In this document: in pieces, positions 24,616-25,161 of the stretch | Position numbering within the stretch: the first letter of the stretch is position 1 | Layout: each line of letters begins with the position of its first letter | Sequence record: MH791411.1 | Length of the DNA: 64,000 nucleotides | Strand: one strand, 5' to 3' | Source: Escherichia phage Ecwhy_1 | The notes under the pieces: generated by a model | What the model saw: the letters and a program-made list of their open reading frames with translations, nothing else | The model's database searches: none | Told to the model about the DNA's origin: nothing | Program-made: the position numbers and the translations under genes

Positions 24616-25161
24616 TTAAATATCGTCTGGATAGTCACCACGAATTAGAGTTTCTAGTGCTTCCAGTGCTGCGTCATAATCTTTGCCATTACCCTGTACT
24701 GGGATTTTGTCATATTTAAGATTTTGACGCAATTGTTCATTACCATTGTCAATCATAGCTGAAAATGTAATACACATTTCATCTGTGAATGTACCCATAT
24801 TGTACGAATGTGATGATGAGTTTAATGCATCAATAACATCCATTGTTTCATCGTAGCTAAGATGAAAAACTTCACTACATACACATTCAACAAATTCAGC
24901 GGAGGTGGTTGGGTCATCTAACAAAATAAAGTAAAACTTAGGAACAGCCAAAAGATTTTTTTCGGGATGTTCTTTTAGAAATAGTTCTAGTCCAGCATTA
25001 AGTACTTTATTGTCAACTTTACTATGTTCTGATTGTAGTTTAGTTACATAAGGAGTGATATTGTAACTCCCTGCTAAGTAGTAAACTGAATCTTTATATG
25101 TAGCTTTCACAACGCTGAACTGTTGAAGTGAAAACACTTGTTGTTCGATAGTATGTTTCAT
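24616..25161 (-). CDS. clpS: ClpS-like adaptor domain protein with N-terminal extension
   Basis: [56 protein letters not shown] resembles E. coli ClpS [55 protein letters not shown]. Confidence 0.5.

Follow-up and report, generated by a model that had tools for sequence, protein, structure and literature searches.

A remodelled ClpS-family protein encoded next to IF3 in RaK2-type jumbo phages and its putative phage-encoded ClpAP partner

Does a phage protein with a ClpS-like segment, encoded directly behind an IF3 homolog, act as an adaptor of a Clp protease, and if so, whose protease would it serve? The gene in question lies in a 64,000-nt stretch of Escherichia phage Ecwhy_1 (MH791411.1), subsequently called the window, which belongs to a jumbo phage of the 121Q/PBECO4/RaK2 type; Escherichia phage vB_Ec-M-J matches the region with 99.9% identity. 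Sequence comparison and structure modelling identify the gene as a lineage-specific, remodelled member of the ClpS family. Since the phage genome encodes a ClpA and a ClpP as well, the adaptor is likely to work for a protease of the phage itself, and not just for that of the host.

The central part of the protein is a ClpS core

According to the open reading frame (ORF) list of the window, the gene runs on the minus strand from an ATG at 25161 to a stop at 24616, an orientation that the first-pass annotation of the locus had missed. The layout of gene and protein is as follows:

24616..25161, minus strand: whole ORF, 181 aa plus stop, extended ClpS-family protein of PHROG 15940 (from the ORF list)
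24970..25161, minus strand: N-terminal orphan domain, residues 1-64, predicted to be folded with three strands and two helices
24940..24969, minus strand: short linker, residues 65-74, ending in P74 (from HMMER and HHalign alignments)
24700..24939, minus strand: ClpS core, residues 75-154, beta-alpha-alpha-beta-alpha-beta
24619..24699, minus strand: C-terminal part, residues 155-181, with a linker (155-161) followed by an amphipathic helix and an acidic tail (from alignments)

PHROG 15940 matches the protein over its full length (E 1.9e-84). Full-length homologs of 165-197 aa are found at identities as low as 18%, and we therefore regard the ORF as a real gene. The 'protease adapter protein' of phage fEgEco12 is 100% identical to the 181-aa protein, and the labels of other orthologs vary ('ATP-dependent protease', 'ClpS domain-containing protein', 'hypothetical protein').

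Taken from one sequence alone, the ClpS-like pattern is suggestive: the Pfam ClpS model is matched over half of its length with 15.6 bits (E 0.014; cutoff 23 bits), ClpS entries of the PDB are matched at E 0.4-0.7, and an NCBIfam model search with the protein gave no match. With the family profile, E. coli ClpS is found in the PDB at E 4e-5, and an exhaustive profile search with the family extends to bona fide ClpS proteins. The check by ClpS profile search that the first-pass annotation had proposed recovers ClpS: PF02617 is matched by 17 of 17 family members (best E 3.5e-8) and HHalign against ClpS yields 99.4% probability (E 6.6e-22). Furthermore, tblastn with E. coli ClpS finds the orthologs of GAP32 and of Yersinia and Erwinia phages at 2e-4 to 2e-5. 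The structure model (full-length pTM 0.53) displays the beta-alpha-alpha-beta-alpha-beta fold of ClpS, and the ClpS-specific motifs, the DD.T..FV loop and GTYT.E, are kept. Landmarks of the core are the pocket loop from L80 to residue 91, N114, G123-T-F-T-D-E128 and L148. Homology and modelled fold together identify residues 75-154 as a ClpS core, so the domain itself was called correctly from the two protein strings quoted earlier, both of which are present (residues 73-114, and GTFTDE at 123-128). Its placement in the C-terminal half was wrong, as the core forms the middle of the protein and is followed by a conserved 27-aa stretch of linker, helix and acidic tail.

Among the profile matches, one candidate relative (P0029, 904 aa) was rejected as spurious: it is a low-complexity, translated tandem repeat with 14 matched stretches (E 1e-20). 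In another match, a metagenome protein of 166 aa (P0037), the canonical ClpS domain occurs twice in tandem (two PF02617 matches, E 1.2e-70).

A folded domain stands in place of the N-terminal extension

Substrate delivery by canonical ClpS requires a disordered N-terminal extension (NTE) of at least 14 residues (PMC8666677). The NTE enters the ClpA pore, and blocking its entry inhibits delivery (PMC9663308). The phage protein has no such disordered stretch. The junction proline is kept: P74 aligns with P25 of E. coli ClpS and is a proline in 17 of 23 family members. Where canonical ClpS carries the disordered NTE, a conserved folded domain of 64 aa is located. A fold is predicted for residues 6-64 with high confidence, whether the whole protein or the domain by itself is modelled, which leaves ∼5 free residues at the N-terminus. 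The domain is conserved across the family and carries the motif Y22-K-D-S-x-Y-Y-x-A-G-x-x-D-I-T-x-Y38. These N-terminal ∼70 aa had been described as an extension of unknown function, and they indeed have no known relative. Because the orphan domain cannot be threaded like an NTE, any hand-off of substrates would have to differ from the mechanism of E. coli ClpS.

A second addition is found behind the core. The C-terminal helix, which spans residues 162-176 in the structure model, and the acidic tail share the conserved motif L-E-x-L-I-R-x-D-Y-P-x-D-[LI]; their conservation is 0.459, compared with 0.311 for the variable linker.

The N-degron pocket is altered and the ClpA contact surface is partly kept

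In ClpS, the residues N34, D35, D36, T38 and H66 form the polar entrance of the pocket and hold the alpha-amino group of the N-degron (PMC8346999, PMC9810338). Four pocket residues of E. coli ClpS are retained in the phage protein, namely D83 (D35), T86 (T38), V91 (V43) and L148 (L99), and four are substituted: N34D, D36P, H66N (N114) and M40A (Ala88). In 17 sequences, the phage protein and 16 close relatives, D35, T38, N34D, D36P and H66N are invariant or nearly so. We compared these positions with 19 canonical ClpS proteins, those nearest to the phage profile, a set that may be biased: D occurs at position 34 in 2/19, N at position 66 in 3/19 and P at position 36 in 0/19. The hydrophobic lining is preserved in character, since the positions of V43, M62, V65 and L99 are occupied by the hydrophobic residues V91, I110, L113 and L148, of which V91 and L148 do not vary among close relatives. 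Conservation of the pocket, which the first-pass annotation had named as a check, thus gives a divided answer: D35, T38, V43 and L99 stand, the other four positions have changed, and across the wide family D35 is retained in 14 of 23 members.

The gatekeeper Met40, which excludes beta-branched N-terminal residues, is not kept. The corresponding Ala88 is invariant in the 17 close relatives, and position 40 varies in canonical ClpS too (M in 5/19). The M53A mutant of Caulobacter crescentus ClpS is reported to show broadened specificity.

As to docking, K84 of ClpS is said to contact the ClpA N-domain, as described in structure papers of 2002. Two conserved acidic ClpS residues also contact this domain (10.1101/2024.06.12.598358). 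E128, the equivalent of ClpS E79, is invariant in 23 of 23 diverse family members. The other two of the three documented contacts are lost: E82 is replaced by I131 (variable) and K84 by F133 (F, Y or L in the family). In the canonical set, the E79 position is E or D, the E82 position is E in 11/19 and the K84 position is K in 15/19. The TxE motif with T132 is conserved in the family. Within the core, the pocket-entrance positions are more conserved than the rest (permutation p 0.034), and the same applies to the combined set of functional residues (permutation p 0.021).

The same phages encode ClpA and ClpP

No ClpA-like gene lies inside the 64-kb window, whose large ORFs encode topoisomerase, ribonucleotide reductase (RNR), helicases, terminase and virion proteins. 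When E. coli ClpA is used as a tblastn query, all RaK2-like phages prove to encode a full-length ClpA homolog, so that a Clp_N-type unfoldase is available as a partner in the same genomes, including vB_Ec-M-J. The loci are:

clpA, WPEC3: L010 2986-5274
clpA, SE_PL: L009 2941-5211
clpA, GAP32: L012 256-2550
clpA, vB_Ec-M-J: 168677-170965
clpP, WPEC5: L011 2444-3139
clpP, vB_Ec-M-J: 81671-82366

The ClpA of WPEC3, a 99% relative, has 762 aa and is 42% identical to E. coli ClpA. It carries both ATPase rings, both Walker A/B pairs and the KYR and GYVG pore loops, with IGM where the ClpP-docking IGL is expected. The best family model for phage ClpA in NCBIfam is ClpA (752 bits), and its Clp_N repeat exceeds the Pfam cutoff. 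The N-domains are strongly diverged, with 41-49% identity among the phages and 21-28% to E. coli ClpA; for the ClpS-like protein, with identities of 47% and 37%, the rate of divergence is similar. WPEC3 clpA is preceded by its own perfect sigma70 promoter (L010 2920-2947) and has a terminator. The phage ClpP homolog (231 aa) has an intact Ser-His-Asp triad and scores 153 bits against the clpP model and 51 against the head-maturation type. It carries a C-terminal extension of ∼25 aa; the gene lies among DNA-metabolism genes and has a TGaTATAAT extended -10 element upstream. We found 71 records with the ClpS-like gene and 70 with a closely related ClpA, in the same genera. In vB_Ec-M-J, clpP is located at 81.7 kb, clpA at 168.7 kb and the ClpS-like gene at ∼252.8 kb.

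The E. coli host also has ClpA, and the ClpS-like protein could instead be a modulator directed at the host. It would then dock on host ClpA and either feed chosen host proteins to ClpAP or block delivery. In the blocking version the protein, lacking an NTE, would occupy ClpA N-domains or N-degron substrates, by which the host N-end-rule pathway would be blocked and phage proteins protected. This is also the reading of Iyer et al. 2021, and we grant it a modest chance. Against it speak the loss of E82 and K84, two contacts to E. coli ClpA, the retention of the family in phages of very different hosts (Escherichia, Xanthomonas and unidentified metagenome hosts) and the fact that its constant companion is the phage ClpA. 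A pure blocker, moreover, would not need the simultaneous conservation of pocket loop, N-terminal domain and C-terminal tail. The first-pass annotation had suggested that the protein could redirect or block host ClpAP; in this form the claim is not supported, given the lost contacts, the replaced NTE and the phage-encoded ClpA and ClpP, because of which the target need not be host ClpAP.

Transcription unit and gene neighbourhood

The ClpS-like gene is embedded in the following features of the window:

25175..25678, minus strand: IF3 homolog, 167 aa, upstream gene (Pfam IF3_N 3.3e-16, IF3_C 2.2e-12; PHROG 9787)
25169..25173, minus strand: Shine-Dalgarno sequence AAGGA, 7 nt before the ATG and directly 3′ of the IF3 stop codon (from sequence reading)
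25723..25751, minus strand: sigma70-type promoter TTGACA-17-TATAAT, ∼45 nt before the IF3 start (12/12 match)
2481-2509, 7525-7553 and 25723-25751, minus strand: the three perfect sigma70 sites (TTGACA-16/17-TATAAT) of the window
24545..24602, minus strand: hairpin followed by U7, putative terminator, directly 3′ of the ClpS-like stop (dG -21.6 kcal/mol, z -6.05)
23996-24541, minus strand: KTSC-domain gene, downstream neighbour (Pfam 6.2e-14, residues 20-75)
22435-24006, minus strand: 523-aa 'virion structural protein' (PHROG 18596)

The IF3 homolog carries both the IF3_N and the IF3_C domain and is separated from the ClpS-like gene by a gap of 13 nt. The adjacency noted at first sight is thus real, and the two genes are probably co-transcribed. 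Promoter and hairpin sequences point to a two-gene unit, and we infer that it is read early by the host RNA polymerase. The perfect promoter 5′ of IF3 is found at the same position in SE_PL and fEgEco12. The 64 kb contain 3 perfect sigma70 consensus sites compared with 0.18 expected, and these may indicate a few early units with strong expression.

The hairpin 3′ of the ClpS-like gene is kept in 7 of 7 relatives examined (z -4.1 to -8.0), at the following positions of their loci:

L001 3978-4050
L002 3987-4048
L003 3993-4062
L005 4589-4665
L006 1127-1208
L007 4496-4571
L008 4526-4603

Its sequence is conserved even where the flanking proteins are only ∼20% identical. CTCC, the loop ATAAATA and GGAGTTTTTT are invariant among the relatives, and base changes in the inner stem compensate each other. 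In its sequence the loop is similar to TATAAATA, the core of T4-type late promoters, and a GGAG in the 3′ arm, ahead of the KTSC gene start, could be the Shine-Dalgarno sequence of that gene. The hairpin may combine a terminator, a late promoter and occlusion of the ribosome-binding site (RBS). We considered a generic repeated terminator and rejected it, as the window holds only one copy.

The gene order is DHFR, RNase H, Dda, two small ORFs, IF3, ClpS-like gene, KTSC gene and virion protein gene. GAP32, XaC1, SE_PL, fEgEco12 and four metagenome contigs share it. As the order persists in these contigs, whose ClpS-like proteins are only 18-24% identical, the linkage to IF3 is ancient. Being inherited within a long collinear block, the adjacency gives little evidence of functional coupling. 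Guilt by association was accordingly rejected as independent evidence, since every relative shares the block. The coordinated takeover of host proteostasis and translation that had been proposed on the basis of the IF3 neighbour rests only on this adjacency.

Another reading assumes that the ClpS fold is reused in a role shared with IF3 and KTSC, for example in binding the ribosome or a translation factor. The C-terminal domain of ribosomal protein bL12 shares the ClpS fold and belongs to the same structural superfamily (SCOP d.45). We find this role improbable: in sequence and fold the protein is much nearer to ClpS than to bL12, the ClpS-specific motifs are conserved, the synteny from DHFR, RNase H and Dda onward is inherited and carries little functional information, and the conserved terminator with its late-promoter-like motif lies between the ClpS-like gene and KTSC. 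The bL12 domain was also rejected as the closest relative, the structural match being far weaker than that to ClpS, and sequence-profile comparison detected no relationship to it.

Two side observations concern the downstream neighbours. The KTSC protein has a C-terminal extension of ∼100 aa, and its ortholog in phage CBB is labelled 'structural protein'. The 523-aa virion protein shows a weak, sub-threshold Pfam MA3 match (E 0.0078, residues 229-292) that is probably due to chance; it is mentioned in view of the genes with links to translation nearby.

A proposed role at a phage ClpAP

From the homology, the fold and architecture, the residue pattern, the co-occurrence and the promoter and terminator sequences we infer docking, partner, timing and substrate recognition as follows. 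The ClpS-like protein would be a remodelled adaptor or regulator, made early from a host-type promoter, and would use the surface that surrounds the invariant E128 to bind the N-domain of a ClpA-type unfoldase. This unfoldase would most plausibly be the ClpA of the phage, with its strongly diverged N-domain and with phage ClpP as peptidase, and the protein may act there as a substrate selector or as a regulator. We hold this explanation with moderate confidence. In the window phage and its close relatives the N-degron pocket would be kept in an altered form (D82, D83, T86, N114 and an alanine as gatekeeper). With this altered pocket retained, binding of protein N-termini may persist, possibly with broader specificity. 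The orphan N-terminal domain would probably provide a second surface for binding cargo or a partner and so replace the pore-threaded NTE.

Several observations weigh against this proposal. The NTE, essential for delivery by canonical ClpS, is absent. Docking on any ClpA is unproven in view of E82I and K84F, and the conservation of E128 could have structural reasons. The pocket is degenerate in many members of the family and in distant ones (GAP32 has T at the D35 position and K at the H66 position), so that recognition of N-degrons cannot be a function conserved throughout the family. On the side of the protease, the ClpP-docking tripeptide of phage ClpA varies between phages (IGM, LGM, MNM), and some records label the phage ClpP 'head maturation protease'. 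Finally, clpP, clpA and the ClpS-like gene lie ∼85 kb apart, and their co-occurrence may only reflect shared descent of a core genome.

An extension of the remodelled-adaptor proposal would make RaK2-like phages the owners of a self-contained ClpA-ClpP-ClpS protease with a re-engineered adaptor and a type of hand-off that is not seen in cellular ClpS; host-type promoters would turn it on early in infection, and it would destroy selected host proteins. A folded domain binding cargo or a partner would have replaced the NTE, a conserved C-terminal acidic tail would have been added, and host defence or translation factors would be candidate targets. We consider this wider scenario rather unlikely. 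That the protein is a stand-alone binder that caps or sequesters phage or host N-termini without any unfoldase is very improbable, for although D83, T86, V91 and L148 and polar residues at the N34 and H66 positions are kept in the window phage and the ClpA contact surface is kept only in part, the pocket shows less uniform conservation across the family than any other functional site, E128 is invariant, and the gene co-occurs with phage ClpA and ClpP.

Comparison with known systems

The assignment to ClpS is already public and not new: besides the annotations and PHROG 15940 mentioned above, GAP32 gp314 is annotated with PF02617, and the ortholog in phage CBB (AMM43882.1) is named as a phage ClpS by Iyer et al. 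2021. In the same paper ClpP is said to be found 'instead' in other phages, and a role as assembly chaperone is considered for ClpA. ClpP and ClpS co-occur in RaK2-like genomes, whereas Iyer et al. 2021 present them as alternatives, one or the other depending on the phage. Clp proteins are also listed in the Atu_ph07 paper, which draws no connection between them. We found no published account of the extended protein layout, the lack of an NTE, the changes in pocket and contact residues or the joint presence of the three components in the RaK2-like lineage. The published work we found treats the Clp components separately and assumes that the adaptor feeds host ClpAP, and the interest of the locus lies in one phage lineage encoding unfoldase, peptidase and adaptor together. 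Substrate delivery without an NTE, if the protein is still capable of it, would mean that AAA+ adaptors have another way of handing off their cargo; an inhibitory protein would instead be a natural blocker of ClpA or of N-degrons. In either case the conserved orphan domain would help to trace the proteins that are degraded or protected by the phage.

Compared with E. coli ClpS (YljA, PF02617; ∼106 aa), the phage protein is longer (181 aa), with the folded 64-aa orphan domain in place of the NTE and with an extra C-terminal helix and acidic tail. It differs from bacterial ClpS in N34D, D36P, H66N, M40A, E82I and K84F, and its gene is not adjacent to clpA. The C-terminal domain of bL12 differs from the phage protein in that the ClpS-specific motifs are present in the latter.

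Parallels are found in two other, unrelated jumbo phages, in which the set of ClpA, ClpP and ClpS recurs. PA5oct gp224 and Atu_ph07 gp708 (100 aa each) are likewise phage ClpS proteins in genomes with ClpA and ClpP. However, both have the canonical short form and keep the N-D pocket loop, E79 and K84; H66 is kept in PA5oct and is E in Atu_ph07. Their genes (PA5oct, L013 903-1752; Atu_ph07, L014 84-1488) lie next to or near Hsp20, not IF3 and KTSC. Since these two phages carry a canonical 100-aa ClpS, the extended architecture is specific to the RaK2-like lineage.

A functional parallel may be drawn to Gp53 of phage SPO1, which resembles an adaptor of Bacillus subtilis ClpCP (PMC6873191). The comparison is made by description, and that paper does not call Gp53 a ClpS homolog. 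In both cases a phage protein reprograms a Clp unfoldase early in infection, as shown or proposed. Gp53, however, targets the ClpC of its host, with experimental support, whereas the partner of the ClpS-like protein may be encoded by the phage itself.
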